This document shows, piece by piece, positions 2,732 to 26,955 of a DNA stretch of 32,000 nt. The stretch spans positions 570,001 to 602,000 of the forward strand of contig OZ007020.1 in the NCBI GenBank assembly GCA_963931495.1, written 5' to 3'. The position numbers were made by a program, and so were the translations under genes. Within the stretch, counting starts at the first letter, position 1. Every line of letters begins with the position of its first letter. Source of the DNA: an uncultured Alphaproteobacteria bacterium (GTDB lineage Bacteria > Pseudomonadota > Alphaproteobacteria > Rs-D84). The notes under the pieces were generated by a model that ran no database searches, was not told the DNA's origin, and saw nothing but the letters and a program-made list of their open reading frames with translations.

Positions 2732-3685
2732 TCATATCCGTATGTGATGAATTTTAATGCCGAACAGTGTTATTGTATTTCCGATTACTCGGACAAATGG
2801 GATGACTGTTTTGTTTGATTGCTTTTTTCGGTGATAGCGTTGCATGTCGCGTTTCATAAAATCTTCGGGATACAGGTTTAATTTTTTTGCTGTATTATAA
2901 AATCGCGAATATACATCATGTGGTGTGTTTGTGTAATCATATGGTTTTACTGTATAAAAATGCAAAATTGCATAATTGCCGGCCAAGACATCTTGTTGCC
3001 ATTGTGTGGGATATTTGATTGAAATCTTTACCCCGGGACCAAAATTGTACCGCAATGGTAAAGACAATATTTTCCCATCAAATGCCACATTCAGTAAATC
3101 TTGATCGGGATATTTTAACTCTATATCGGTCGCCCCGGGTATTAAGTGCCCGTATTCAGTCATTTTTTTTACATTTATTAACAAAACACCGGAATTAAAA
3201 TAAATATCATTTTTAAGATATTTTTGTGTAAATTCCGCGACATAAATTCCATTTGGGTTGTGTTGGCTTTCTGTTGGGGCCATGTCGCGCACTGCGCCCA
3301 TTACGTAATTTGTGATGTCCACAGAATATAATTCTGACAAGTCGTCGCATACCAAGGTATCAGAATCCAGGTATAATATTTTATCGGTGTTGGGAAAAAT
3401 TCTGTGTGCGAACAGCCGATAGAATATCACGGGACTCCATCGTGAAAAATCATATTTACGAAATGGATTTTCGCTGTGGCGTATAACGCGCCATGTTAAT
3501 TTTGTTCCGGGATACTGTTGTATAATTTTTAATATTACTTTTTGTCCGCGTGTGTGTGGCGGAACCATGCAGAAAATGTGGTACACCGTGTCGTCGCGTT
3601 TATTTTCCAACAGTGATAATATTGACACGGCGGCTTGGTCGCAAAATGCGGTATCAAATGCATATAAAATATTTATTTCAGACAT
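2732..3685 (-). CDS. Glycosyltransferase family 8 (LPS/LOS glycosyltransferase-like)
   Basis: INILYAFDTAF, YLDSDTLV (DxD motif) and NSGVLLIN are GT8 hallmarks. ATG at 3685 overlaps the upstream GT2 stop by 13 nt. Confidence 0.8.
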   Translation of the reverse strand: MSEINILYAFDTAFCDQAAVSILSLLENKRDDTVYHIFCMVPPHTRGQKVILKIIQQYPGTKLTWRVIRHSENPFRKYDFSRWSPVIFYRLFAHRIFPNTDKILYLDSDTLVCDDLSELYSVDITNYVMGAVRDMAPTESQHNPNGIYVAEFTQKYLKNDIYFNSGVLLINVKKMTEYGHLIPGATDIELKYPDQDLLNVAFDGKILSLPLRYNFGPGVKISIKYPTQWQQDVLAGNYAILHFYTVKPYDYTNTPHDVYSRFYNTAKKLNLYPEDFMKRDMQRYHRKKQSNKTVIPFVRVIGNTITLFGIKIHHIRI

Positions 3686-4620
3686 GATAAAAACCAACAT
3701 AAAAATTTTTGTTTCAGTCGCAGGTATCGTCGCGGAATTTCCCGGCATGATGCAATCAGTGCAGATTTTGCATCTGTTTGATATTGGCCGAATTTTTTTG
3801 GTTTATATATTGTTTCCAGCATCAAATACGTGAACGTGTTTTGGTAAAACATACGCCAGAATACAAAGTCATATTTGTCCAATAAGTCTTTTCGTATATG
3901 CCGAAAATACATTGGGAACCATTCAAAATATTGTGGTGAAAATTCTGCGGATGTTATTGTCCCAGGATGGGTCCGGTGATACACAGATATATTTTGTGTT
4001 TCAACAACCAGATTTGCCCGGTAACATATATCCAACATGAATGTTAAATCGTCGCCAAATGTTTTGAATTCTGGGCGAAATCGCGTGTTGCCAATTAATT
4101 CGCGACGATAAATGCGGCGCCATATCCAACACCATTTACTGGCCAGTGGTGCCAACAAAAAACGCGATGGGTTGTTTGACGACCCAGATATATTTGGAAT
4201 CCATGTATGATTTTTTGACGGGATAAATCTGAATTTATCGGCAACAATGTTTGTTGCCCCGCCCGCCATATCGGCCCCAGTTGTTTCGGCCATATGTAAT
4301 AACATTTCCAGCGCGTATTCTGTAAAACAATCGTCAGAATCCAGAAATGCAATGTAACGACCGCGCGCAATGTCCAGTCCCCTGTTCCGTGCGGCGGATA
4401 CACCGTCATGTGATGTTTGTTGAATCAGGATAAATCGTTTGTCTTGCTGGGTATATTTGCGAATAATTTGTATGCTGTTATCGGTACTGGCGTCGTCAAT
4501 GATGATGCATTCAATATTTTTCAGTGATTGGCATTTGATGGATTCCAAAGCATCGCCAATATATTTGGCGTAATTATAGTTTACGACGATTACAGATATA
4601 TCTGGTACTGTTTTTGACAT
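3673..4620 (-). CDS. Glycosyltransferase family 2
   Basis: ISVIVVNYNYAKYIGDALESIKCQSLKNIECIIIDDASTDNS and FLDSDD are the canonical GT2 N-terminal fold motifs. ATG at 4620 lies 8 nt after the stop of the upstream Cys-rich gene. The ORF-track TTG at 4641 is the alternative start. Confidence 0.85.
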   Translation of the reverse strand: MSKTVPDISVIVVNYNYAKYIGDALESIKCQSLKNIECIIIDDASTDNSIQIIRKYTQQDKRFILIQQTSHDGVSAARNRGLDIARGRYIAFLDSDDCFTEYALEMLLHMAETTGADMAGGATNIVADKFRFIPSKNHTWIPNISGSSNNPSRFLLAPLASKWCWIWRRIYRRELIGNTRFRPEFKTFGDDLTFMLDICYRANLVVETQNISVYHRTHPGTITSAEFSPQYFEWFPMYFRHIRKDLLDKYDFVFWRMFYQNTFTYLMLETIYKPKKFGQYQTDAKSALIASCREIPRRYLRLKQKFLCWFLSCLK

Positions 4621-4628
4621 TGTTTGTT

Positions 4629-5294
4629 TTAATACAGGCAACTGTCTATGTACACGAAACTGCCGGTGCCATCATTCATTGTTACATCTGGCCTGATATA
4701 GCAATCTGTTATTGTGTTCCAATATGCATTGGCCAGCGAACTGCAACTTATTTCAATAACTTGCATATATACGCCGTCCAGCATTTGGCCACCTGGGGTT
4801 GTGTATGAACAGAAATACAATTCGCTGCGGCCACCTGCGTCGTATATACCCTGTGGAAAAATAACTTGTCTTGATTCGTAGCAGTCGCCACGTACACTGT
4901 ACAGTGACGGGCAAGATGCACATTCATAGTCTGATGCGCAATCATAATAATTTTGTGGTGATGTAACTGTTGTGCCATTGGCATTTTTGCATTTTGATAA
5001 ATAGTACCCAGGACTGCATACGCGAATATAGGATTCTTCGGTGGAATAATCAGACAATTCTTTTAGAAGGCGAATAAATTTTCCACCACATGTTCCACCA
5101 TGGCATAGCTTAGATGCACTGCAATACTGGAAAAAAGACGTGTCGTTTTCGGGCATGCCGGTTTGGTTGTAAACGCGTTCACTGCTTACAACGCCGGTAT
5201 AGTTACACATCGCCGCGTTTACATCAGATTTGTATATTATGAATACAAATGAACTGATGATTCCCCAAATTATTTTGCCTATATCTAGTTTCAT
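4629..5294 (-). CDS. Cysteine-rich secreted protein P1 (uncharacterised; paralog of the 25509-26325 gene)
   Basis: From ATG 5294: MKLDIGKIIWGIISSFVFIIYKSDVNAA is a Sec signal-like N-terminus. The mature part carries many Cys, including VCSPGYYLSKC. The C-terminal motif ITDCYIRPDVTMNDGTGSFVYIDSCLY is shared with the 26233-26322 region. The track start TTG 5354 would translate through the regulatory box and is thought unlikely. Confidence 0.6.
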   Translation of the reverse strand: MKLDIGKIIWGIISSFVFIIYKSDVNAAMCNYTGVVSSERVYNQTGMPENDTSFFQYCSASKLCHGGTCGGKFIRLLKELSDYSTEESYIRVCSPGYYLSKCKNANGTTVTSPQNYYDCASDYECASCPSLYSVRGDCYESRQVIFPQGIYDAGGRSELYFCSYTTPGGQMLDGVYMQVIEISCSSLANAYWNTITDCYIRPDVTMNDGTGSFVYIDSCLY

Positions 5295-5322
5295 TGTTTC
5301 AGGTGCCCCTCCGGAATCCGAT

Positions 5323-5436
5323 GCCGAATCTAAACGGTGGTTTATTTTCAGCAAATTTTATATTGACTTTTTCTTGGTTTTCTTGATAAAATTCACACGG
5401 TTTGTAACCGAAAATAAACCACCGTTTAGATTTGGC
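5323..5436. repeat. Inverted repeat pair (27-bp arms, 1 mismatch, 60-bp spacer) carrying two copies of the palindromic box TAAACGGTGGTTTA
   Basis: 5323-5349 gccgaatctaaacggtggtttattttc is the reverse complement of 5410-5436 gaaaataaaccaccgtttagatttggc, except at 5326/5433. Box cores are at 5331-5344 and 5415-5428. Confidence 0.9.
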
Positions 5437-5510
5437 ATTTTGGTTGGTCGTAATTTCTTGTTTTAACTGCTTTTTTGTCTTTTTTACTTACGCCGGGATA
5501 TTTATCTTTC

Positions 5511-5540
5511 ATTGTAAAAATTCTTGAATTTATTGGGCAA
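5511..5540 (-). promoter_or_regulatory. Candidate sigma70-like promoter for the P1-GT2-GT8 operon
   Basis: On the minus strand, TTGCCC (5540-5535), an 18-nt spacer, then TACAAT (5516-5511). This would put both boxes in a ~210-nt leader. Hexamer match only. Confidence 0.3.
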
Positions 5541-5591
5541 TGTGTATAAAATACCACGAAGTATGTTTATTTTGAACCCCAGGTATAAGTT

Positions 5592-7991
5592 ATGGCAGAT
5601 GATATAAAGCAAATTCATGAACGTGAAGAAAAATGGCAACGCCGTTGGGCGGATGCCGGTGTGTTTACCCCCAAAAATGATGGCAGCAAGACGCCGTTTT
5701 ATATGTTGGCGGAATTTCCGTTTCCATCGGGCAACGGACTGACCGGGGGACATATGTTGATTTATTCCGGTTCGGACGTTATGGCGCGGTTTCGCCGTAT
5801 GCAGGGCTATGATGTTCTGTTCCCGATGGGGTTTGATTCATTGGGAATTTCGGCGGAAAACTATGCCACGAAAATTGGCAAGCATCCGTCTGTGGTTGTG
5901 CGTGAACTGATTGAAAAATTTACGCACAGTATGATAAGCATGGGTTGGTCTATTGATTTGAAATCGCAAATTGCAACGTCTGACCCTGAATATATCAAAT
6001 GGACCCAGTGGATGTTTATCCAGTTCTTTAATGCGGGGTTGGCGTATAAGTCTATGTTGCCGATGAACTGGTGTCCGAATTGTCGCACCACGTTGACCAA
6101 CGAAGAACTGGAAGATGGCAAATGCAATCGTTGTCATGGGCCGGTTGAAATTCGTGAAAAAATGCAGTGGAATCTGGCGATTACTAAATATGCCGAACGT
6201 TTGTTGGATGATTTGAAATTGGTTGATTATCCGGAACGTGTAAAGCGTGACCAGATAAACTGGATTGGTAAATCCACCGGTGCGGATGTTGATTTTATGG
6301 TCGGTGACGATGTAATGACCGTTTATACCACACGTGTTGATACTATATTTGGTGCGACATTCTGTGCGATTGCACCGGAACACAAATTGGTTGCCAAATG
6401 GCTGGCGGATGGTCGCATTAAAAATGCGGACGCGGTGCGTGCGTATATAAAACAATCGGCCGAAAAATCTGAATTTGACCGGACGGACGCAACAAAAGAA
6501 AAAACAGGTGTGCGTTTGGACGGCATAATGGCGCGCAATCCATTTACAGGCGATGAAATCCCCGTATTTGTGGCGGACTATGTATTGGTGAATTATGCGC
6601 ATGGTACGATTATGGCTGTGCCGGCGCACGATGAACGCGACTGGGATTTTGCGAAAAAATTCGGTTTGAAAATTATTCCTGTGATTGATGGTGGTGAACC
6701 CGACAAAGTCTGGACCGGGGATGGCATGCATATTAATTCAGGATTTTTAGATGGTATGAACAAGGCCGACGCAATCGCTGCCGCGATTAAGTATGGTGCG
6801 GAACATGGGTTTGCCCGGCCGAAAACGCGGTTCAAAATGACCGATTGGGGGTTTTCGCGCCAGATGTATTGGGGCGAACCAATTCCATTGGTGTATTGTG
6901 AAAAATGCGGTTGGGTGCCGGTGCCTGAATCTGAATTACCGTTGATGCAGCCGTATATGGAAAATTATCGCCCGACCGAGGACGGTGAAAGTCCCCTGGC
7001 CCGCGCGACAGATTGGGTTAATACCACGTGTCCAAAATGTGGCGCGCCCGCGCGACGCGAAACGGATACTATGCCGCAATGGGCGGGGTCATCGTGGTAT
7101 TATATGCGGTATCTGGATCCGCGTAATGACAAAGAATTTTGTTCGCGGGAACAAATGGAACGCTGGATGCCGGTAAATCATTATAATGGCGGCAATGAAC
7201 ACAATACGCGTCATTTGATTTATTCGCGCTTTTGGCACAAGGCGTTATATGATTTGGGATTTGTAAATACTGTTGAACCGTATAAAAAGCGGACCACAAA
7301 TGGTTTGCTGATGGGGTCGGATGGTAAAAAAATGTCTAAATCCGCCGGTAATGGATTCCAGGTTGATGAAATGGTGGCGCGCGTTGGGGCCGATGCTGCG
7401 CGTACGACAGTGTTATCGTTGGGGCCGTGGGATACGAATGTGAACTGGTCAGACGGTGCGCTGGCCGGGGTACAAAGATTCCTGAAGCGCGTGGAAAATA
7501 TGGCGGATAATCTGACCGATGATGTGATGACGTCCGAACAGGAACGTTTGGTTAATCAATTAATCGCAGATATGACAGAACGACTGGAAAATATGCGGTT
7601 TAATACGGCGATTTCCGCGATGATGGAATTTATTAACCAGTTCAGTGGCACTATGCCCCGCCCTGTGTACGAAGTATTGATTCAAATGTTGAACCCATTC
7701 GCACCGCATTTGACCGAAGAAATTTGGGAACGTTTAGGGCACGCGGATATGTTGGTGTTTCAACCGTGGCCAACATACGACGCCGCAAAATTGGCGAAAA
7801 CAACAATGACAATTGTTGTTTCGGTTAATGGTAAACGTGCGTCTGATTTTGTGGTGCCTGTTTCTGCCACAGAAGAAGAAATTGTTGATGCCGCCAAACA
7901 GGCCGCATCCAAAAAACTGGTCGGTGCCAGTATTATCAAAACAATTGTTGTACCGAACAAGTTGGTGAATTTTGTGGTTCGCAACAACTGA
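5592..7991 (+). CDS. leuS: Leucyl-tRNA synthetase
   Basis: 799 aa. Class I aaRS N-terminus FPFPSG...GGH, CP1 editing-domain region, zinc-like CPNC...CNRC, KMSKS loop (GKKMSKSAGNG) and the LeuS anticodon-binding C-terminus. Confidence 0.95.
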   Translation: MADDIKQIHEREEKWQRRWADAGVFTPKNDGSKTPFYMLAEFPFPSGNGLTGGHMLIYSGSDVMARFRRMQGYDVLFPMGFDSLGISAENYATKIGKHPSVVVRELIEKFTHSMISMGWSIDLKSQIATSDPEYIKWTQWMFIQFFNAGLAYKSMLPMNWCPNCRTTLTNEELEDGKCNRCHGPVEIREKMQWNLAITKYAERLLDDLKLVDYPERVKRDQINWIGKSTGADVDFMVGDDVMTVYTTRVDTIFGATFCAIAPEHKLVAKWLADGRIKNADAVRAYIKQSAEKSEFDRTDATKEKTGVRLDGIMARNPFTGDEIPVFVADYVLVNYAHGTIMAVPAHDERDWDFAKKFGLKIIPVIDGGEPDKVWTGDGMHINSGFLDGMNKADAIAAAIKYGAEHGFARPKTRFKMTDWGFSRQMYWGEPIPLVYCEKCGWVPVPESELPLMQPYMENYRPTEDGESPLARATDWVNTTCPKCGAPARRETDTMPQWAGSSWYYMRYLDPRNDKEFCSREQMERWMPVNHYNGGNEHNTRHLIYSRFWHKALYDLGFVNTVEPYKKRTTNGLLMGSDGKKMSKSAGNGFQVDEMVARVGADAARTTVLSLGPWDTNVNWSDGALAGVQRFLKRVENMADNLTDDVMTSEQERLVNQLIADMTERLENMRFNTAISAMMEFINQFSGTMPRPVYEVLIQMLNPFAPHLTEEIWERLGHADMLVFQPWPTYDAAKLAKTTMTIVVSVNGKRASDFVVPVSATEEEIVDAAKQAASKKLVGASIIKTIVVPNKLVNFVVRNN

Positions 7992-7993
7992 TA

Positions 7994-8021
7994 AAAAACG
8001 CCCGTGTGGGCGTTTCTTATT
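7994..8021. terminator. Bidirectional terminator between convergent leuS and rpiB
   Basis: Stem aaacgccc / gggcgttt (7996-8003 / 8008-8015) with loop gtgt. An A-run lies upstream and a T-rich tail downstream. Confidence 0.65.
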
Positions 8022-8467
8022 TAAGAGATTTTTTTCAGTCGGCGCACACGGCGTTCGTTTTCATCAAATGGACTTTCCAAAAATGCACGTGCGGTTAAAA
8101 ATGATACTTCTATATCAATATCATCCGCGGCCAACGCCAATACGTTGATGTCATCGTGAAAACGATCATCGCGTGCCTGGTCCGGGCGGTCACAGCGTGA
8201 CGCACGGATATGGCGATAACGATTGGCGGCGATTTGCATCCCGGCGCCTGTGCCACAAATTAATATTCCGCGTGATTTTTCGTCGTCAACCATTGCATCT
8301 GCCAGCGCTTTGGCAATGTCTGGAAAATCAACCGGGGTATTGGGGTCATCCGTCCCCAGGTTCACAACACTGTATCCGATTGCGTTTAACATTTCTGTCA
8401 GGTATAACTTTACACCAACACCACGATGGTCGGCGGCGATATATAACTTTGATATTGTTTTATTCAT
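8021..8467 (-). CDS. rpiB: Ribose-5-phosphate isomerase B (RpiB/LacAB family)
   Basis: LYIAADHRGVGVK...ILICGTGAGMQIAANRYRHIRA is the RpiB family signature. Its start overlaps the bactofilin stop by 8 nt. Confidence 0.9.
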   Translation of the reverse strand: MNKTISKLYIAADHRGVGVKLYLTEMLNAIGYSVVNLGTDDPNTPVDFPDIAKALADAMVDDEKSRGILICGTGAGMQIAANRYRHIRASRCDRPDQARDDRFHDDINVLALAADDIDIEVSFLTARAFLESPFDENERRVRRLKKIS

Positions 8468-18163: not shown

Positions 18164-19876
18164 TTATTCGGGATGGGTTTCGTGTGTTGTCCATGGTTCG
18201 TCATTCATAACCAGGTAATACAATTCGGCAAATTCTGTACCAGGGTTACGTATCACGGGGCGGACAACAAAAATATCAACATTGCATGCATGATTGCCCT
18301 GCTCTGATTGTATTGCCATTAAATTAAAATGAAACTTATCTGCGAAATCCATTGCTTGCAGATACGCGGCATCGTCGTCAGACGGACTGACCGAATCACC
18401 GGCCCACATCAACCACATTCCATGGTTTACAACATTTTCTTGGCCCTGTAAATCATCGGCCGACAGCAATGTCAGTGGTTTGAATTCAATGTCGTTTGTG
18501 AATTCACCAGTGCTGGTTTCGGTCCAATCATACATACCCCCAACAAATCGCAGGGCGCCGTATATAAATCCGCCAGTCCTTTCCATACGGGCCAATGCGC
18601 CAATATTAGACATTGTTGATTGAAATAACCAATCACGAATACGCCCAGAAAATGAACTGCTGCGTGCAATTTTTGTTGCGTTACGAATTTGGCGCCCACC
18701 AGTGTTGGCCGCCCGAACCGCACGCCATGCACGTGCGACAATGTTTCCGCGTTGTGCCGTGCGTAATCCGCGCAATGCCCGCCGGTATTGATTTAATGAT
18801 GCGAATGTGTCTGATGCCTGGCGATAGCGACGCACGTCATCAGTATTTTCCAATGTGCGCATTGTTTGTGCGTAATTTTCAACTTCGGATAATTTGCGCG
18901 CGTACCCCGTTGCGTCGGCCACACGGTCAATTTGATTCAATTCGGACATTGCGCGCGCGTATTGTTGCGATGTGCGAATATAATTTGTTACAGATTCTGT
19001 TTGGCGCAATGTGCGCATTGTTTGGCTCAGTCCGTTTAACGTGCGGGATGCGCGTGCGGCCTTGGTCGTTCCCAGAATCGCAGTCCCAGTTCCCATTGTT
19101 GCAACGGTTATCGCAACGTCCAGTCCAATTTCCATATATGATATCCACCGTAAATCAGCGTCGCCGGCAACGTAATAATCATTTGTGTCATCTGGGATAT
19201 TCACGGTTTCGTGCATCGCCAGATTTATCATTTCGCGATTACCGGCAATTGCAGATTTGCTGGTGCATCGGTTACCATGCGGAAATATTTTATCAATGTT
19301 GTCATTTATGTACTGCATTGATATGGTGTTGTTTTTGCCGGGACCGATAAAGTCATCCAGACTGCCTGATTCAACAACCATTATTGCATACCATGCAGGG
19401 TCGGTATTCGTCCAAATGGAATCGTCGCCAGGCCCGCCAATAACTGGATTTGGATTATTGTCAGATGCCAGTGTGCGTCGTTCGGCCAATTTTATACGCT
19501 GGTTCAATATCTTTGGTTGTGTTTCATAGTTTATTTTGATATTGCGGCCAGTTGGAAATGTGTATTGTATCGTTTGTAATTTTATTGTTTCGTCATCAGA
19601 TGCATTGGCAAATTCAGGGCATGCAATTACGTGGCGCAGTACATCAGCATTTTGAAATGTTTGATATATCCATTGTTGGATTTTTGTTTCATCGTCTGAT
19701 GCGTCAACGGTGTTTGCTGTTTTAGCCAGTGCATTTGCAAATACAGTGGTGGAACACGATGTGTCTGGTTGTGCTGTGTCGCGGTGTATGTCGGGTATTG
19801 GTGTATTATCTGCGCAAAGCGCCACATTTGTGGCGCCAACAAAAATAACAAAAAATGTCAAAATTTTTTGCAGCAT
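18164..19876 (-). CDS. 570-aa exported protein, uncharacterised
   Basis: Signal peptide MLQKILTFFVIFVGATNVALCA. Central hydrophobic stretch IGLDVAITVATMGTGTAILG, then an Arg-rich helical region with an internal QTMRTL duplication. The start lies 3 nt after the upstream gene stop. Confidence 0.7.
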   Translation of the reverse strand: MLQKILTFFVIFVGATNVALCADNTPIPDIHRDTAQPDTSCSTTVFANALAKTANTVDASDDETKIQQWIYQTFQNADVLRHVIACPEFANASDDETIKLQTIQYTFPTGRNIKINYETQPKILNQRIKLAERRTLASDNNPNPVIGGPGDDSIWTNTDPAWYAIMVVESGSLDDFIGPGKNNTISMQYINDNIDKIFPHGNRCTSKSAIAGNREMINLAMHETVNIPDDTNDYYVAGDADLRWISYMEIGLDVAITVATMGTGTAILGTTKAARASRTLNGLSQTMRTLRQTESVTNYIRTSQQYARAMSELNQIDRVADATGYARKLSEVENYAQTMRTLENTDDVRRYRQASDTFASLNQYRRALRGLRTAQRGNIVARAWRAVRAANTGGRQIRNATKIARSSSFSGRIRDWLFQSTMSNIGALARMERTGGFIYGALRFVGGMYDWTETSTGEFTNDIEFKPLTLLSADDLQGQENVVNHGMWLMWAGDSVSPSDDDAAYLQAMDFADKFHFNLMAIQSEQGNHACNVDIFVVRPVIRNPGTEFAELYYLVMNDEPWTTHETHPE

Positions 19877-19879
19877 TAA

Positions 19880-21067
19880 TTACAGTCCTGATACACTGCC
19901 GATTGATTGACCACATGTATCAATGATGCGTTGGCGTTCGCTTGATATACGCCGTATCAATTCATCATATGGATCTTGTGTCGGATTATTCGGCTTTGTA
20001 TATGGTGGAACCGGTACCGTTGTGCCCGATTGAACACATGTATTACCAGAACGTGTATAGCCATCAATACATGTCCATGTATAGCAAATATTTGTGGTGT
20101 CTGGAATATATTTTATATATGATTCAATTCCCACCGCAGGTTCTGTTTCGCCGGCACAGAAACGGGTTGTGCATTCGGGGGTCCAAAAATCGTTGCGGAA
20201 CATGCTTTGCGGCCAAGATGCTTCGGTATCAGACCATGTGGTGTTATCTTTCATTTTCCCTTGCAAGCATTGGCGGACCATTGGTTCAACAGGTGTCGGT
20301 GCAGCGGCATCGGCGGGTGCGCCACAAAACATATAATCACCAATGTTGGCCAGCCGTTCGCCCTTGTTGAATACGGTGTTGCAACATGTAAATTGTCTGG
20401 TTATCGGGTCGTATAGACAATCTGTTTCTGAAAATAATTGGGATCCAGCAACCAGTCCACCAACCAGTGCGCCGGCACCAACGGCGGCCCCATATCCAAT
20501 TTGACCAAGCACAGGTATTGCATTGACCACAGCGGCCCCACCCGCAGCGGCGGTGGCGCCACTGACCACGCCCTGGACAACGTCGCCCCACGAATGTTCA
20601 TCGTTACCAGATGCGGCATTTATTACACCGGCGGTTCCCGCCACTGCGCCAACCGCACCCAGTGCCCCGGTTGCAAGATTGCGTGCATTTATGCGGGGGC
20701 CGCCCTGGTTTTGTGGGGATGTGTTCCCCATGGGTGGAACAACGGGTGGAACATTGCCGGCGGATGTGGCCCCGGCGGCAACATTTGTGTTACCTGTGAC
20801 AGATGCGCCCGATGTTCGTTGTTGGGCCGGGATTGATTCATCAATGGATACAATTTTTGACCCGGCGGTGGTCGGTGCGTTAAGGCGCATCCCAGTGTCG
20901 CGATTACGATAATTTAATGTTTGGCCATCGTCACCAACGGTTAATGTTGCCTGGCGGGTTGTTTGCTGCCATGCATCTGGATTAGAAATATTTGATATAT
21001 CCAGTGCAAACGCCGATGATGTTGCGAATAATGCCACGACAGTGAAAGAAGCAATTTGATGTTTCAT
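19880..21067 (-). CDS. 395-aa exported protein with glycine-zipper region and Cys-rich C-terminal domain, uncharacterised
   Basis: Signal peptide MKHQIASFTVVALFATSSAFA. A Gly/Ala-rich zipper follows (GALGAVGAVAGTAGV...GAAVGAGALVGGLVAG). The C-terminal domain has 12 Cys, including TCIDGYTRSGNTC. Confidence 0.7.
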   Translation of the reverse strand: MKHQIASFTVVALFATSSAFALDISNISNPDAWQQTTRQATLTVGDDGQTLNYRNRDTGMRLNAPTTAGSKIVSIDESIPAQQRTSGASVTGNTNVAAGATSAGNVPPVVPPMGNTSPQNQGGPRINARNLATGALGAVGAVAGTAGVINAASGNDEHSWGDVVQGVVSGATAAAGGAAVVNAIPVLGQIGYGAAVGAGALVGGLVAGSQLFSETDCLYDPITRQFTCCNTVFNKGERLANIGDYMFCGAPADAAAPTPVEPMVRQCLQGKMKDNTTWSDTEASWPQSMFRNDFWTPECTTRFCAGETEPAVGIESYIKYIPDTTNICYTWTCIDGYTRSGNTCVQSGTTVPVPPYTKPNNPTQDPYDELIRRISSERQRIIDTCGQSIGSVSGL

Positions 21068-21070
21068 ATT

Positions 21071-21976
21071 TTAATACTTTCCATTTAATTGGGCCAGACA
21101 ATCTGAAATTGGAATCCCAGAATCACGACATTTTTGCGCCGTTGCCAAATCTGCATCAATTATAGACAGGCGGGCGATTTCCTTGGTACAGAATGCGTTT
21201 ACGCGGTTATTGTAATCTTCTTCGCTTTCAATGGTTATTGTGCGATATGCGGATGCGTCTTTGTACGGGGCGTATCCTGCCGCGTCATTTTGCATGCGTT
21301 CGGTAAATGATAAATCCGCCGCCGTTGTGGGAAATGCCGTTGCCACCAACACAGAATCACCGGTGCTGTTCGCAGATTGTAAATTTTTTAATTCTTGTTC
21401 GCGTTGTAATTTTTCCAGTGCCCATGGTTCGCCGTTCCATACCGGTAACTGTTGCTGGTACGGGTTTTGAAACTGAACCCCCTGTTGCGTTGCCGCGGTA
21501 TTCGGACCGGTTGCCGTTGGGAATGCAACCGTCGTTCCAGTTGGTGCCGCAATCGCATTTTCAGATACGTATTTTTCAAATTCAGTATCAATATATCCGC
21601 CACATGGTGTTACATAGTTATGATTTGGTAAACTGGCCAATTGGACGGTCAGTGTCGGGCGGGCGTCATCCACGTCCACACCAACACAATTATTGCGCGA
21701 CGCACAGTATGATGCCACCAGTGCACCGACAATCGCCTGGCAATCAGCGGTTGATACGTCAGTACCCTGGGCATATACGGGAACTGGCATGCGTTGGTTA
21801 TACGGACTGTCCGGGTTCCAGAATGGATTTGATGAATAATTCTGTACGTTCTGTATCTGGCCATACTGGGAAAATGGCGACGGTGTCGTTGTTGTATTAA
21901 TCGTTGTCGCAGTGGCCGAATTCATTATCCCGACAATAAATGCGCACACAGATGCAGATAAAATACGTATTTTCAT
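21071..21976 (-). CDS. 301-aa exported protein, uncharacterised
   Basis: Signal peptide MKIRILSASVCAFIVGIMNSATA. The mature part has 8 Cys. The gene ends 3 nt before the next gene start. Confidence 0.65.
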   Translation of the reverse strand: MKIRILSASVCAFIVGIMNSATATTINTTTTPSPFSQYGQIQNVQNYSSNPFWNPDSPYNQRMPVPVYAQGTDVSTADCQAIVGALVASYCASRNNCVGVDVDDARPTLTVQLASLPNHNYVTPCGGYIDTEFEKYVSENAIAAPTGTTVAFPTATGPNTAATQQGVQFQNPYQQQLPVWNGEPWALEKLQREQELKNLQSANSTGDSVLVATAFPTTAADLSFTERMQNDAAGYAPYKDASAYRTITIESEEDYNNRVNAFCTKEIARLSIIDADLATAQKCRDSGIPISDCLAQLNGKY

Positions 21977-22009
21977 TCCCCCCGTCCATTTTTTCTTTGT
22001 TTCATAGTA

Positions 22010-22477
22010 TTATATCAAAAACCAGATTATAATTAAAGACAAAATTCCACCACCGATAAAGAAAGGTGCAAACGGGATGTATTTTTGTTTTCGGGTTCCG
22101 CCCCATAACAATCCGGCAATACATGCCAAGGCCAGCGCGATTGCCAGTCCTGTTATCCCCAACCATAATCCGCCCACAGATATTAATTTTATATCCCCCA
22201 TTCCGATCGGAATATCGGACTTGTTGTGGTGTTTGTTTCGCATGCTGAATATCAAACCAATTACGGTGGTTAATACGTATCCAAAGATAGCGGCGATTAC
22301 GGCGTCGGCAATATCAATCGGCCACGGAAAGAAATTTATGATTGTTAATCCAATCAGCATCATCGGAAACAGGTATGCGTCGGGGATAATTCTGCGCCGC
22401 CAATCAGCAACAGAAATGCGCCATGCGCACCATGCGGCTGTGACCAGTAATAAAACAAAAAAGATGGTATAAAACAT
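22010..22477 (-). CDS. A24-family prepilin (type IV/Flp) signal peptidase, CpaA/TadV-like short form
   Basis: Polytopic, 155 aa. The first catalytic Asp sits in RRIIPD and the second in GMGDIKL (GxGDxKL), with a C-terminal IPFAPFF motif. There is no methyltransferase domain. Confidence 0.75.
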   Translation of the reverse strand: MFYTIFFVLLLVTAAWCAWRISVADWRRRIIPDAYLFPMMLIGLTIINFFPWPIDIADAVIAAIFGYVLTTVIGLIFSMRNKHHNKSDIPIGMGDIKLISVGGLWLGITGLAIALALACIAGLLWGGTRKQKYIPFAPFFIGGGILSLIIIWFLI

Positions 22478-22550: not shown

Positions 22551-23078
22551 ATGAGTAAAGGCTGGGACAGCGCAACACTGAAAAAATTAAAAGCATTAAC
22601 AGGCAAAGGGTTGTCAACATCTGAAATTGGCAGACGTTTGGGAATGTCTAAGAATGCGGTTGTTGGTAAATTGAACAGATTGGGATGGAATTCCAAGGCG
22701 GGCGGTGTCAGTGCCACAACCAAGGCGCCGGTGTCCAAAAAGGCGGACAAGGTTACATCAAAAAAAGGTGCCAGTACAAAGAAAACATCGGTCGCCAAAC
22801 AATCAACTAAATCTGGGGGCGCGGGCAAAAAAGCGTCTGGGGTGGCGTCGTCACGCGGGACGCGTTCTGTGAATAATAATCTGGCAATGCACCAGCGTAT
22901 CATCCAGCATTCATTAGAAATGGCGAACTTAAAGCCAAATCAATGTCGTTGGCCAATCGGTGATCCGGATTCCGAAGGGTTCCATTTTTGTGGTGCGCCT
23001 GTATTTGTTGGCAAGCCGTATTGTTACGAACATTGCAAACAGGCATATCAATTTACACCGCCAAAGAAAAAGCAATAA
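22551..23078 (+). CDS. gcrA: GcrA cell-cycle regulator
   Basis: WDSATLKKLKALTGKGLSTSEIGRRLGMSKNAVVGKLNRLGW is the GcrA N-terminal DNA-binding domain. A basic linker follows, then C-terminal CRWPIGDP...FHFCG...PYCYEHC, the conserved GcrA C-terminal motif. Confidence 0.9.
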   Translation: MSKGWDSATLKKLKALTGKGLSTSEIGRRLGMSKNAVVGKLNRLGWNSKAGGVSATTKAPVSKKADKVTSKKGASTKKTSVAKQSTKSGGAGKKASGVASSRGTRSVNNNLAMHQRIIQHSLEMANLKPNQCRWPIGDPDSEGFHFCGAPVFVGKPYCYEHCKQAYQFTPPKKKQ

Positions 23079-23093
23079 GTGGGGTGTCATTAT

Positions 23094-25310
23094 ATGACAA
23101 GCGAGAGGGAAAATATGAATTCTGTTTTAACACCGCGGGAATATGACATTGCCGGCAATTCTTTTCGTGCGTACCGTGATTCAGATGGCAAGTTGGTGTT
23201 CGTTATTGATAATACGTTAAATGAACGTAAAACGAATGTGATGCTGGTTATAAATCCTGTGGGTGACAGAAAATGGGATGATATTTTGGCGAATGATTAC
23301 GCCGTTGATTTAGAAACAGTTCGCCCAAAGAAAGATAATAAATATCAAAAACTGGATATTGAATACAGCGGATTGGCGGAATATGATGATTTAATTCGTG
23401 CATACGAAAACGGCGATGATTTAACCAGTGCGCTGGGGGCATTGGCGCGTTTTCGGGATGCGTCGGTGCGTCGGGCGGCGATGGAACGGTTGTCGGTGGC
23501 CGAAGCAAATGCCGCGCGTGCGCGCGATACAATATTAAAAACAAATGATTCAATTGCCGAATTGCGTGTGCGGTTGCGTCAGTTGCGTCGTACATTGGCA
23601 AATCAAAAAAATCAAATTGGGCGCGAGCCAACAAAACAATCTGCATCAAAAATATTACGAACAGATGCGCAAATTGATGCCATAAATGAAAAATTGCGTC
23701 GCGCGGAACGTCGCCTGGACAATGCCCAGCGGCGGTTGGTTGTCGCTGATGAAGATGCCGCAGTGGCACGGAATATTTTGGCATGTGACCCGGTCGCGGG
23801 GGATTCTGGGGTGGGCGTAACGTCGGTGATTGATGTTCTGCGTCCGCATGATGTGGATGTTCAAAACCAAAATTTGCCGGTAATTCAGCCGCGTAATGAT
23901 TTGATTGCAACAACCCCGGTCCCAGATGCGGATGTATCGGATGTGGATGCACCGGATGGCGATGTTGTTGACCCAGGTGCGTCTGGTGATGCGGAATATA
24001 ATGTTGACTATGACCAGGATTTTAATGTAAATATAACAGAACAACCAAAGGCGGATATGATGGCCGAAGAAGATGTAAAACCACTGTTTGATAAAAATCC
24101 AGAAATTCTGGACGAAGAAATTGCGTTTAAGCCAATTCAGTTTGGTGTTTCCAGTCCGGTGTCGGATGAACAAAATCAATCAGACGTGTCGTCTGGGGAT
24201 AATAATGATGTTTTATCAGGGGCGCCATTATCATTTACGCCGCCGGCGGAAAGTAAGCCCAGTGTAACGAATGATGCGTCGCCATCAGATAATCAATACG
24301 CGCAACAACCGTCCCCTGTGCTGGACAGTTTGTCTGCGGTTGGTGCAACCCCGGCCCCAGAAACAAATGTAGAACAAACAAACGATGTTGTACAACCGGC
24401 GGCGCCGTCGGCGGCCAACAGACCGGCACCTGTGATGCCAAATGTTGCGCCGGAAAATACGTTGGGCAACAACATTCCAAACAATAATTATGTTAATGAA
24501 AATTCACAGACTGTGCCTGCACCGGCTGGGGGTGCGCCAATTGCAAATGCGCCCCGCCCTGTGTCGCCAATAACTGGTACACCGGCACCAACAAATCCGG
24601 CACCACGTCGTCCGACGGCAATATATTACATAATGTTAGTATTGTTGATTGCGTTATCGGTATTTACGTTGTGGCTGTACCAGAAAAATACGAATGATGG
24701 TTCGCCTGACTTGACGGCAACGGTACCGCCAGCCGAAGAAAATGTTGCGGTGGATGTGGTTGTTGATGACGTGGACAGCCCGTTTGTGCCAACCATAACA
24801 ACAACGGACACGGAACCAGATGTGGTCACCACGGTTGTCGCAGATGTGGCCCCGGATACTGGGGACATGGTGGAATCGGTTGTTGCACCGGAAACTGTCC
24901 AGGATGTTGACATTGAACCGGTCGCGGAATTAATTCCAGAACCAGAACCGGTTGTCGTCCCGGAACCTGTGCAAGATGTCCCGCCGGTCATAGAAACAAC
25001 AACCGTGGCACCGGTTGTGACGCCGGCACCGATACTGGAACCAGAACCAGTTGTTATTGAAAGCGAAGAAGAAATATTGGCAAACAAGCCGGCATATAAT
25101 GTTTCACAAAATGAAAACATGTTTGTTGCCGACCCAGAATATGAAACAGAAACACAGTATACTGTGACGCAAGATTTGCCAAAATGCCCAGACGGTTCGG
25201 CACCCGATATGAATGGGTGTTGCCCGGGCGAGATATATACGGATCTGGGGGCGGCTGGGTTTAATTGTTGTCCGGAAACGGGCGGTGATTGTTTCCCGCC
25301 ATTGTTATAA
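23094..25310 (+). CDS. Large bitopic protein: coiled-coil N-domain, acidic/Pro-rich disordered region, one TM, PEV-rich spacer, C-terminal Cys cluster; uncharacterised
   Basis: The ORF abuts the gcrA stop. Candidate starts are GTG 23079, ATG 23094 and ATG 23115, the last preceded by agaggga. TM segment IYYIMLVLLIALSVFTLWLY is at about 24619-24681. The protein ends CPDGSAPDMNGCCPGEIYTDLGAAGFNCCPETGGDCFPPLL. Confidence 0.7.
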   Translation: MTSERENMNSVLTPREYDIAGNSFRAYRDSDGKLVFVIDNTLNERKTNVMLVINPVGDRKWDDILANDYAVDLETVRPKKDNKYQKLDIEYSGLAEYDDLIRAYENGDDLTSALGALARFRDASVRRAAMERLSVAEANAARARDTILKTNDSIAELRVRLRQLRRTLANQKNQIGREPTKQSASKILRTDAQIDAINEKLRRAERRLDNAQRRLVVADEDAAVARNILACDPVAGDSGVGVTSVIDVLRPHDVDVQNQNLPVIQPRNDLIATTPVPDADVSDVDAPDGDVVDPGASGDAEYNVDYDQDFNVNITEQPKADMMAEEDVKPLFDKNPEILDEEIAFKPIQFGVSSPVSDEQNQSDVSSGDNNDVLSGAPLSFTPPAESKPSVTNDASPSDNQYAQQPSPVLDSLSAVGATPAPETNVEQTNDVVQPAAPSAANRPAPVMPNVAPENTLGNNIPNNNYVNENSQTVPAPAGGAPIANAPRPVSPITGTPAPTNPAPRRPTAIYYIMLVLLIALSVFTLWLYQKNTNDGSPDLTATVPPAEENVAVDVVVDDVDSPFVPTITTTDTEPDVVTTVVADVAPDTGDMVESVVAPETVQDVDIEPVAELIPEPEPVVVPEPVQDVPPVIETTTVAPVVTPAPILEPEPVVIESEEEILANKPAYNVSQNENMFVADPEYETETQYTVTQDLPKCPDGSAPDMNGCCPGEIYTDLGAAGFNCCPETGGDCFPPLL

Positions 25311-25339
25311 AAAATCTGCGCGAATGCGCAGATTTTTTA
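25311..25339 (+). terminator. Rho-independent terminator after the 743-aa gene
   Basis: 11-bp stem aaaatctgcgc / gcgcagatttt (25311-25321 / 25326-25336) with a 4-nt loop and a T-run. Confidence 0.75.
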
Positions 25340-25369
25340 TCGGTATATCAAATATCGGATTGATTTTTG

Positions 25370-25399
25370 TTGATTTGTTTTTGGCAGATTTGGTATAAT
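25370..25399 (+). promoter_or_regulatory. Strong sigma70-like promoter with extended -10 upstream of Cys-rich gene P2
   Basis: TTGATT (25370-25375), an 18-nt spacer, then TGgTATAAT (TG 25391-25392, TATAAT 25394-25399). The predicted start near 25406 places both boxes in the leader. Confidence 0.55.
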
Positions 25400-25426
25400 T
25401 CACCGCGTGAAAGTGATGATATTTAT

Positions 25427-25537
25427 GCCTAATCTAAACCACCGTTTATAATGGCGATTTTTATTTTTGTAAAAATCCCAGAATTCTGCATTTTTTGTCC
25501 CCCACTTTTTGCCGAATCTAAACGGTGGTTTAGATTC
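25427..25537. repeat. Second inverted pair of the TAAACGGTGGTTTA box (18-bp arms; right copy is a perfect 24-bp palindrome)
   Basis: 25431-25448 aatctaaaccaccgttta is the reverse complement of 25519-25536 taaacggtggtttagatt. 25514-25537 gaatctaaacGGTGgtttagattc is self-complementary. 25511-25532 is identical to 5323-5344. Confidence 0.9.
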
Positions 25538-26325
25538 AATTATATTATGTGTGATGGCGATGTTGCCGTTTTCCGGATATGCGGCGGTATCTTACCCCGG
25601 GGACGAGGCGGGATCTTGGTGCAGTTCGGGTTTTACATGGTGTACCGATATGGCGGGAACATTTGGATGTTGTGCCCCCCAGACAGCGTCATGCGGGAAC
25701 GGTGCGTATTGTAAGACCGGTGGTGGCGGTGGTGGTGCCGGTACCGGCGGCAGTGCCACGTGTACACAAAAATTTTCATGCACCGGTTCGGCATCAGAGA
25801 TAAATTCTGTCAGTAATTGCGCGGTTTCGTTAACCAGTTGTTATGGTGATGCTGCAAGCAATCCAGTTGTGACGTGTACCAGATGTTTAACCGGGTATGA
25901 CATGACCGCAATGTATATCAGTCTGGATGGTGATTGTCGGAATGTATCCATACAGTATTTATTATACGTGTACCAAGGATGACGGTGGTGGTGGTGATGG
26001 CGGTGGTGATGGTGGTGGCGGTGACATCGGAACAATTTGTCAGAATTGTACCAATTCGGCGGGGGTGTGTACAATGACATCGCCAAAGTGTTGCCCACCA
26101 TGTGATGAAAGTGCCGTGGGTCCAGTGGAATGTCCGGCGGGACAGTATGGGTTTTCTGCATCAAACTGTCAACCATGTCCGGTGGGGCCAAACGGCGAAT
26201 CAACCACCAGTATAAAGGGGCAGAACAGAAGTATCACCGGATGCTATATTGCGGCGGGCACGGAATTTTCAGATGACACAGGCAGTGGTGTATATGTGGA
26301 AAAGTGTAGTTATTCTTTGATATAA
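25509..26325 (+). pseudogene. Cys-rich secreted protein P2, split by a +1 frameshift (two overlapping ORFs 25509-25982 and 25927-26325)
   Basis: The upstream ORF has a hydrophobic N-terminus and many Cys, and stops at 25980-25982. The second frame is open from 25906 and continues the same Cys/Gly-rich composition to a C-terminus homologous to P1. The start is uncertain (TTG 25509, GTG 25551 or ATG 25554). Confidence 0.55.
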
Positions 26326-26352
26326 AAAAATCCCGCATTATGCGGGATTTTT
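26326..26352. terminator. Bidirectional terminator between P2 and convergent acpS
   Basis: 10-bp stem aaatcccgca / tgcgggattt (26328-26337 / 26341-26350) with loop tta, an A-run upstream and a T-run downstream. Confidence 0.7.
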
Positions 26353-26734
26353 ACAGTTGTTCAATAATGACCATTGCCACAGAATAATTGTCTTGGTCGG
26401 TAATTGACAAGTGTATGTTGATATTATTGTTGCCGTTGGATTTTTCTTTTAATGCCGTTCGGGCACCACCGGCCAGCAATAATTCAGGGCATCCAGTGTC
26501 ATTATGTATGACCGAAACATCCGAAAACGCAATGTCGTCGCCAAATCCGGTTCCCAATGCTTTCAGGCATGCTTCGCGCGCAGCCCAAAAATTCGCCAGG
26601 TGTTTTTCAGCGTTCGCGTTATCGTTGTCGGCATATTCCAGTTCTTTTTTTGTAAATATACGCTGTTTTTTGAATGCCGACCAGTCCAGAAAACGATCGC
26701 ATTCAACCATGTCAATTCCAATACCCAGTATCAC
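26351..26734 (-). CDS. acpS: Holo-[acyl-carrier-protein] synthase (4'-phosphopantetheinyl transferase)
   Basis: ILGIGIDMVECDRF...FTKKELEY...FWAAREACLKALGTG...HLSITDQDNYSVAMVIIE is the AcpS family pattern. GTG 26734 is preceded by GGAGG at an 8-nt spacing. The longer track ORF runs antisense through tRNA-Pro. Confidence 0.85.
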   Translation of the reverse strand: MILGIGIDMVECDRFLDWSAFKKQRIFTKKELEYADNDNANAEKHLANFWAAREACLKALGTGFGDDIAFSDVSVIHNDTGCPELLLAGGARTALKEKSNGNNNINIHLSITDQDNYSVAMVIIEQL

Positions 26735-26820
26735 GGATGTATCCTCCCCTGTGTTATTGATTTTACGGTTATGGCATACTAGGCACTTTTTGCCGATTCG
26801 TGCAAGCATAAAATATATAC

Positions 26821-26849
26821 TTGCATTTAATACGGTGGGATTGTATAAA
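26821..26849 (+). promoter_or_regulatory. Candidate promoter of tRNA-Pro
   Basis: TTGCAT (26821-26826), a 17-nt spacer, then TATAAA (26844-26849). The tRNA starts 12 nt downstream. Confidence 0.5.
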
Positions 26850-26860
26850 TATGTGCATGT

Positions 26861-26937
26861 CGGGGCGTAGCTCAGCCTGGTAGAGTACTTGCATGGGGTG
26901 CAAGGGGTCGCAGGTTCAATTCCTGTCGCCCCGACCA
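26861..26937 (+). tRNA. tRNA-Pro(GGG), CCA encoded
   Basis: Acceptor CGGGGCG/CGCCCCG. Anticodon stem CTTGC/GCAAG with loop ATGGGGT. T-arm GCAGGTTCAATTCCTGT. Confidence 0.9.
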
Positions 26938-26955
26938 TTTTTGTTTATTAAACGA

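Follow-up and report, generated by a model that had tools for sequence, protein, structure and literature searches.

Invertons such as fimS of Escherichia coli (with FimB and FimE), the capsule promoters of Bacteroides, and comparable segments in Clostridioides difficile consist of a short promoter segment flanked by inverted repeats. Both orientations of such segments coexist in populations, one family of sites may serve many loci, and the targets include surface structures and glycosyltransferases. The stretch of DNA described here, 32,000 nucleotides from an uncultured alphaproteobacterium of the Rs-D84 lineage (the window), contains an element that, with a predicted promoter and predicted targets, resembles invertons in these respects, an inverted repeat at positions 5321-5438 located upstream of a gene designated P1. 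This element is very probably a site-specific DNA inversion switch, or inverton, for phase variation. It represents a known kind of switch that is here unusually compact, with a total length of about 120 bp. Classical invertons measure about 150-300 bp or more, whereas in the window only 60 bp lie between the repeats and 84 bp between the crossover centers, and no recombinase gene is adjacent. Within one published inverton set, 75% of members are "under 300 bases" (PMC11602134).

The sites at the ends of the element are comparable in design to those of Cre/loxP, Flp/FRT, and Dre/rox, in which a site of about 34 bp comprises two inverted arms of 13-15 bp around a short asymmetric core that is matched between partners and sets direction. 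The layout of rox is 14-4-14, and that of the present sites is 15-4-15. Unlike lox, FRT, and rox, with which they share no sequence similarity, the present sites are separated by 50-60 bp and have a spacing locked to approximately eight helical turns (nine in some). The hix and gix sites used by Hin, Gin, Cin, and Pin contain a palindromic motif of the form ..AAAC(C)/(G)GTTT.. with a short asymmetric center, an arrangement that the present sites resemble, and Hin also inverts a promoter. Hin/Gin-type systems require an enhancer bound by Fis, invert about 1-3 kb, and carry the invertase gene inside or beside the inverted segment. In contrast, the 84 bp of the present element leave no room for an enhancer, the 60-bp spacer being filled by a promoter, and neither the window nor the neighborhood of any switch discussed below yielded a resolvase-like open reading frame (ORF) (Pfam, and phmmer with a Hin probe).

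Taken as an analogy, the closest in biology is mycoplasma phase variation by Xer-like enzymes. Each mpl gene of Mycoplasma penetrans has its own small invertible promoter, and the vsa system of Mycoplasma pulmonis has its recombination site within the 5' coding region, a placement shared by a second class of switches found here (class 2, see below). Phase variation by Xer-like recombinases has been described for vpma/Xer1 of Mycoplasma agalactiae (PMC2268961) and for mba of Ureaplasma parvum (PMC3599477). As in Mycoplasma and Ureaplasma, the genomes concerned are reduced and families of variable surface proteins appear to be switched by site-specific inversion, and one related genome (L067) has a switch directly downstream of an Xer-like gene. 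Unlike those systems, the present one occurs in another phylum, uses another site sequence, and is associated with exported Cys-rich proteins instead of lipoproteins, and its link to Xer is weak. The class-2 switches (site 2 of the window, L016, L025, and L067) overlap a gene 5' end in the manner of "partial intergenic" invertons and shufflons (Chanin et al.). They differ in that the segment to be flipped holds a ribosome-binding site (RBS), an ATG, and 11-14 signal-peptide codons, with no alternative protein domains. Partial invertons are the longest inverton class (Chanin et al., bioRxiv 10.1101/2023.03.11.532203).

Inversion of the spacer upstream of P1

The window is part of a 958,617-bp contig from a metagenome assembly, the name of which ends in a "c" that may mark a circular sequence; these 32 kb and about 10-kb flanks of the source genome were covered. 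The P1 locus contains the following features, with strand given where one applies.

2732-3685, minus strand: family-8 glycosyltransferase, third gene of the putatively switched operon
3673-4620, minus strand: family-2 glycosyltransferase, second gene of the operon
4629-5294, minus strand: P1, 221 amino acids, Cys-rich, exported (predicted signal peptide), orphan family; first gene of the operon
5306-5312, minus strand: RBS of P1, GGAGGGG
5321-5349: P1-proximal putative recombination site (inverted-repeat arm), from repeat search, motif count, and half-site consensus
5350-5409: 60-bp invertible spacer, present as the window sequence or as its exact reverse complement depending on the assembly
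5363-5392, plus strand: sigma-70-like promoter TTGACT-N18-TAAAAT on the spacer, predicted by consensus; in the window orientation it faces leuS (OFF for P1)
5410-5438: distal putative recombination site (inverted-repeat arm), with the repeated 14-mer at 5415-5428 and core CACC at 5420-5423
5592-7991, plus strand: leuS (leucyl-tRNA synthetase), the divergent neighbor, with its own promoter-like site at 5524-5552

Independent assemblies show the spacer in both orientations. A protein identical to P1 is encoded by 23 contigs, all from independent samples, and six of these contigs were retrieved (L001-L006). When the regions upstream of P1 in the window and these six contigs are aligned, the spacer in L002, L003, and L006 is the exact reverse complement of that in the window, with the arms and the flanks outside them unchanged. 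A second strain lineage (P0001, 96% identical) contributes five more assemblies, for a total of 12. The orientation seen in the window, with the promoter directed toward leuS, is found in five (the window, L001, L004, L005, and L059), and the flipped orientation, with the promoter directed toward P1, in the remaining seven (L002, L003, L006, L055, L056, L057, and L058). The second lineage is marked by one single-nucleotide polymorphism (SNP) inside the spacer, and this SNP lies on the opposite strand in L059, the lineage's one member with the window orientation. Because each of the two lineages includes both orientations, the inversion is recurrent and not a single fixed event. An earlier note on this DNA, made from the window sequence alone, had listed a small invertible switch as the third of three candidate roles for the repeat and had considered 60 bp short for known invertases. 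The recovery of the spacer as an exact reverse complement between identical flanks bears out that role and contradicts that worry. Short-read contigs (L009, L013, L064, L065, L068, and L069) end inside or a few bases from switch sites, as would be expected if both orientations coexist in one sample. In L006 (assembly ERZ1682843), where the switch is in the ON orientation, GTTTAGAAACAAC replaces GTTTAGATTCGGC as the P1-side outer half-site of the proximal site, and this variant may be naturally phase-locked.

The arms are 29 nt each, 97% complementary, and 60 nt apart by repeat search. They contain the 27-nt arms of the inverted repeat that had been described earlier, with the single mismatch at 5326/5433. 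The 14-mer TAAACGGTGGTTTA occupies 5331-5344 of the proximal arm, the asymmetric core GGTG lies at 5336-5339, and the outer half-site, ATGCCGAATCTAAAC, agrees with the consensus of the site family. This 14-mer is present exactly four times in the window, at 5331-5344 and 25519-25532 on the plus strand and at 5415-5428 and 25435-25448 on the minus strand. As had been reported, the pair recurs at 25435-25532 and nowhere else, with no extra match even when up to two mismatches are allowed; the expected number is 0.41, and not one shuffle out of 100 reached four. The core centers are 84 bp apart at both loci (5331/5415 and 25435/25519). P1 starts 28 nt beyond position 5323; the 29 nt previously given for the distance from the proximal arm to the ATG is the difference between coordinates. 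With two pairs and no single copies in 32 kb, and with most pairs of relatives placed at 5' ends of exported-protein genes, the repeat does not have the distribution of a repetitive extragenic palindromic (REP) or miniature inverted-repeat transposable (MITE)-like element.

A connection between these arms and GcrA through GANTC had also been raised. GAATC is indeed present at 5326-5330 and lacking from the distal arm in the window strain, yet this asymmetry is strain-specific, as GAATC also occurs in the distal arm of the second lineage and of L006. The GANTC/GcrA/CcrM link is rejected, since the site does not conserve GANTC, with GAAAA in many copies, and since the asymmetry between arms varies by strain.

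The predicted promoter consists of TTGACT at 5363-5368, an 18-nt gap, and TAAAAT at 5387-5392, matches the consensus at 10 of 12 positions, and has a TG before the -10 element. The same element and its current direction, away from P1, had been recognized in the earlier note, which read it one base off (TTGACT, 17 nt, ATAAAA). Comparable promoters are found at the same position within the element in 11 switches of relatives. P1 and the two glycosyltransferase genes lie on the same strand with adjacent or overlapping ends. When the spacer is flipped, the promoter would read through the proximal site into all three genes, and the operon would be ON; in the window orientation it would read toward leuS, and the operon would be OFF. 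As judged from the sequence, the switch probably turns a surface-protein/glycosyltransferase operon on and off, and we infer the promoter, its ON/OFF effect, and surface variation as the purpose of the element.

P1 itself has no match in Pfam or NCBIfam. Its family is tiny and fast-evolving, with only 16 relatives among 1.84 billion cluster representatives and 13 invariant Cys residues. The AlphaFold model of P1 is of low confidence (predicted local distance difference test score, pLDDT, of 64) and has no fold match in the PDB. The RBS of P1 reads GGAGGGG in the window, GGGGGGG in strains of the second lineage, and GGGGGGGG in L006, and the resulting variable-length G-tract at the RBS could be a second, slippage-type layer of variation.

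A site family with two cargos

Paired TAAAC-SRYS-GTTTA sites with 55-85 nt between them were sought in 185,579 species genomes. Of the 22 loci recovered, 12 are in metagenome-assembled genomes (MAGs) of uncultured gut Alphaproteobacteria from human and deer. Ten of the 12 gut pairs share the outer arm ATGCCGAA..TAAAC, the exceptions being the two from a deer-gut MAG. The arms in the window belong to a palindromic site of approximately 34 bp, ATGCCGAAAATAAAC-GGTG-GTTTATTTTCGGCAT. The half-site consensus derived from 44 half-sites, ATGCCGAA(A/T)(A/C)TAAAC, holds on both sides of an asymmetric 4-bp core, giving a 15-4-15 layout. Center-to-center spacing in 18 pairs, most of them from a scan that allowed 69-99 bp, is 84 bp in nine, 85 bp in five, 83 bp in one, 95 bp in one, and 97 bp in two. 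The spacing thus clusters at eight helical turns, with few pairs near nine.

Cores are GGTG/CACC in the window and GATC/GATC in the deer-gut MAG (L022 and L030). Orthologous leuS/P1 loci in other species keep the switch with cores that have changed yet are still matched to their partners: TAACC-GGAG-GTTAC is paired with CTCC at 84 bp in L060, and GGAC is paired with GTCC at 95 bp in L061-L063. Cores that agree within a pair and vary from one system to the next are what would be expected of a strand-exchange region. Most site pairs in relatives are found at the 5' ends of genes for Cys-rich exported proteins.

More elaborate arrangements are found in some relatives. At L032 3496-3622, and also in L017, a 97-bp switch lies between two divergent paralogous genes of about 520 codons encoding Cys-rich proteins, and one promoter could alternate between the two. 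At L036 7054-7252 there are three sites at intervals of 84 and 85 bp, whose cores are GGTG, CACC, and CACC; two promoter cassettes face outwards between two divergent Cys-rich genes, forming a nested, shufflon-like double switch. Beyond this group, a scan of JGI metagenomes for site pairs gave only unrelated palindromes, and a scan of a viral collection gave nothing. Pairs of TAAAC-N4-GTTTA with other arms, such as GTCGGTATTAAAC-GATG-GTTTAAATCCGAC, and similar spacing are present in unrelated organisms from JGI/ENA metagenomes (L052 1018-1115, L048, and L045); these may be related switch families elsewhere.

The site family is associated with two kinds of cargo. In class 1 the spacer contains a sigma-70-like promoter whose position is constant; this class includes the element at 5321-5438 of the window, L017, L032, L027, L034/L035, both cassettes of L036, L022, L030, L060, and L061. 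Members of class 2 lack an internal promoter and share a conserved module made up of an RBS (GGGGGA), an ATG, and 11-14 codons; they include 25422-25537 of the window, L016, L025, L067, and probably L033 and L019. Fixed promoters are found upstream of class-2 switches in the window (25370-25399), in L025 (6354-6383), and in L067. The non-conserved interior, which together with the conserved spacing had been argued earlier to favor operators, is accounted for by the existence of two cargo classes. The class-2 switch of the window (switch 2) comprises the following features.

25370-25399, plus strand: fixed promoter-like site TTGATT-N18-TATAAT, upstream of switch 2
25422-25448: left site, ATGCCTAATCTAAAC-CACC-GTTTA, with a degenerate inner half-site
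25449-25518, minus strand: cargo module in the OFF orientation, with RBS GGGGGA at 25498-25503, ATG at 25491-25489, and about 14 codons
25519-25537: right site, TAAAC-GGTG-GTTTAGATTC, which in the ON state would be translated as ..NGGLDS..
25509-26325, plus strand: P1-like gene for a Cys-rich exported protein, downstream of switch 2 and split into two ORFs

The reverse-complement repeat of site 2 spans only 18 nt (25431-25448/25519-25536), the outer flanks there are direct with only the core inverted, and two of the four half-sites are degenerate. When flipped in silico, the module of the window encodes MQNSGIFTKIKIAIINGGLDSIILCVMAMLPFSGYA.. and is in frame with the downstream ORF through the right site; the corresponding gene of L025, which is ON, reads MQISGIISKIKMPILNGGLFTAILTVIILFSHSANA... 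The class-2 module is oriented oppositely in L025 and L033 relative to site 2 of the window and L016, with the CACC..GGTG arrangement of the cores constant, exactly as inversion at the cores predicts. With a fixed promoter upstream, a flip of the RBS, ATG, and about 14 signal-peptide codons would switch translation and not transcription. Site 2 is read as a parked or decaying copy. Its gene contains a 4-nt insertion near 25950 in the window (..CAGTATTTATTATACG..) and a different frameshift in a GGT/G-rich tract near 25730 in L054/P0123, and it is intact in L053/P0122 (257 amino acids); these frameshifts could represent independent decay, or possibly repeat-mediated frameshifting.

Candidate enzymes and alternative explanations

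The only candidate for the recombinase is one Xer-like tyrosine recombinase gene, found in L035, whose product falls below the XerC and XerD equivalog cut-offs. The gene is part of a conserved housekeeping synteny, trpS-SIMPL-xer, and identity across its closest 120 homologues is 80-93%. In L067, a related contig of 866 kb, a class-2 switch with its own fixed promoter (7936-8180) starts 77 bp after the Xer-like gene; L068 and L069 end inside this switch, and in L035 a decayed switch (5140-5300) is found at the same place beside the gene. These associations are suggestive only with respect to the Xer-like gene as the recombinase. An HU-like gene is located at L067 2315-2587.

The sites have inverted arms around a short asymmetric core, and partner cores are identical within a system and free between systems, as in sites of the tyrosine type. 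Serine recombinases share the partner-match property for their central dinucleotide, so this property does not discriminate between the two. A tyrosine recombinase is favored by analogy, on account of a site layout like that of lox, FRT, and especially rox, and we regard it as the likelier enzyme with modest confidence; a serine invertase is possible.

In the proposed mechanism, the two palindromic sites of about 34 bp, inverted with their centers 84 bp apart and each with 15-nt arms around a GGTG core, would be bound by a recombinase that exchanges strands at or near the cores, and the 60-bp spacer would thereby be flipped. Closure of the short loop may be aided by an intrinsically curved spacer or by an HU-like protein. 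A/T-tracts with a period of about 11 bp are found in 5350-5409 of the window and in the spacers of L016, L017, L027, L033, and L036, and A-tract phasing near 11 bp exceeds a composition-matched background in 7 of 12 switches, which suggests intrinsically curved DNA in a very short loop. A broader and tentative proposal, which we hold to be somewhat doubtful, is that these elements constitute a minimal, helically phased module in which a recombinase, possibly a moonlighting Xer-like enzyme, synapses 34-bp sites about 50 bp apart and acts genome-wide on two interchangeable cargos.

Several observations weigh against a recombinase-driven switch of P1 expression. No recombinase was found in the window by Pfam and NCBIfam searches of all large ORFs and inspection of unannotated ORFs by eye, nor beside most switches in relatives by phmmer with XerD and Hin probes. 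A third species (P0060) has no switch beside its Xer-like gene, such that this adjacency is not universal. Cre is reported to require a minimum of 82 bp between its sites, and Flp a minimum of 74 bp (PMC4929723). The 50-60 bp between the present sites are below both limits, and the mechanism must differ in geometry from those models. Site 2 has not been found flipped: it is OFF in all six assemblies that span it (the window, L007, L008, L053, L054, and L081), and two further contigs that end just inside it agree, so that its invertibility rests on paralogous loci in other genomes. The orientation of the spacer upstream of P1 was seen to differ between samples, and not as a mixture among the reads of a single sample. 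Promoter activity and the ON/OFF effect on expression are predictions from consensus matching only.

Two alternatives concern the origin of the two orientations. Mis-assembly across a short inverted repeat would produce apparent inversions, and short-read assemblers do break at switch sites. The 29-nt repeat is nonetheless shorter than the k-mer sizes implied by contig names (k87, k141), such that reads fix the orientation; each orientation is seen in several samples and, judging by contig names, from several different assemblers, and the SNP in the spacer flips along with the segment. An assembly artefact is on these grounds scarcely credible. Real flipping might instead be an occasional product of homologous recombination, or of replication template switching at a hairpin, in which case the element would be an accident of its repeat structure. 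Closely spaced inverted repeats are known substrates for template switching, and the failure to identify a recombinase in the window or beside most switches counts in the same direction. An accident of this kind is hard to reconcile with a 34-bp palindromic site that recurs, its arms and spacing conserved, at unlinked loci and in different species where the cargo is unrelated, with 4-bp cores that covary between partners, with placement specifically at the 5' ends of exported-protein genes, and with a repeat of only 18 nt at site 2. The recurrence of the site, core covariation, gene-start placement, and the short repeat at site 2 point to protein recognition and selection, and recombinase-independent flipping is considered very unlikely.

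The other two roles that had been suggested for the repeat do not involve inversion, and neither gained specific support. The one then favored was a pair of operators, in which a dimeric regulator bound to two palindromes eight helical turns apart would loop or roadblock the P1 leader. The sites are indeed palindromic and their spacing is helically phased, and a recombinase bound at them could also repress transcription. Operators of a looping repressor flank static DNA, and here the DNA between the sites physically inverts in natural populations; the asymmetric core is matched between partners and variable between species, a property of strand exchange and not of operators; and at site 2 and its relatives a site lies inside coding sequence. 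These findings leave the operator pair highly improbable. The remaining suggestion was an RNA element, in which the arms would pair in the 5' leader as a 27-bp stem, either a substrate for RNase III or a block to translation. A read-through transcript, for example from a weak minus-strand promoter-like site at 5540-5511, could fold in this way, as could a transcript from the fixed promoter of site 2. Against this, the spacer flips, the predicted start in the ON state lies inside the spacer so that only one arm would be transcribed, and the pairing is explained by the symmetry of the sites at the DNA level. Rfam returned no family at threshold on either strand, only generic hairpin (miRNA-precursor) models far below it. 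A role as an RNA stem thus appears extremely unlikely, and an inversion switch is the explanation preferred here.

Genomic context and biological significance

Several further features of the window lie at a distance from the P1 switch. In a group at 18164-22477, a prepilin-peptidase gene (22010-22477) is followed by genes for three exported proteins of 301, 395, and 570 amino acids without a family match, and gcrA (22551-23078) is located directly beside this group. The region at 23079-25310 encodes a protein of 731/743 amino acids with no family match; its N-terminal part is a coiled coil, a long stretch is of low complexity, one transmembrane helix is predicted, and the C-terminus is rich in Cys (..CPDGSAPDMNGCCPGEIYTDLGAAGFNCCPETGGDCF..). 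The terminator hairpin of this gene lies at 25307-25340. A tRNA gene at 26861-26934 (Rfam, 59.7 bits) underlies the 5' part of the ORF at 26351-26938, implying that the real ACPS gene is shorter (127 amino acids as called in L007).

Close homologues of the Xer-like recombinase from a MAG with these switch sites carry the annotation Candidatus Enterousia avicola. The order Rs-D84, which includes Enterousia, consists of gut Alphaproteobacteria whose genomes measure 0.75-1.0 Mb (PMC12306168). The literature yielded no account of invertons or of phase variation for Enterousia/Rs-D84, and the switches described here are the first evidence found of phase variation in these widespread, uncultured, genome-reduced gut Alphaproteobacteria (Ca. 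Enterousia/Rs-D84 relatives). What is unusual about them is their small size, the helically quantized spacing, the combination of promoter and translation-start cargos on one site family, and the host group. Crossover centers 84 bp apart, at whole helical turns, challenge the loop-size limits of Cre and Flp, and so compact a switch could, after discovery of its recombinase, find use as a genetic memory element. The presence of two cargos on one site family shows how one recombinase can govern where transcription starts as well as where translation does. For the organisms themselves, the findings imply that even gut commensals with genomes of about 1 Mb devote resources to switching their surface proteins and glycosyltransferases stochastically, probably in response to pressure from immunity or phages. 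If the proposal of a minimal module with two interchangeable cargos is true, these gut Alphaproteobacteria would possess a combinatorial network of surface variation comparable to that of mycoplasmas.

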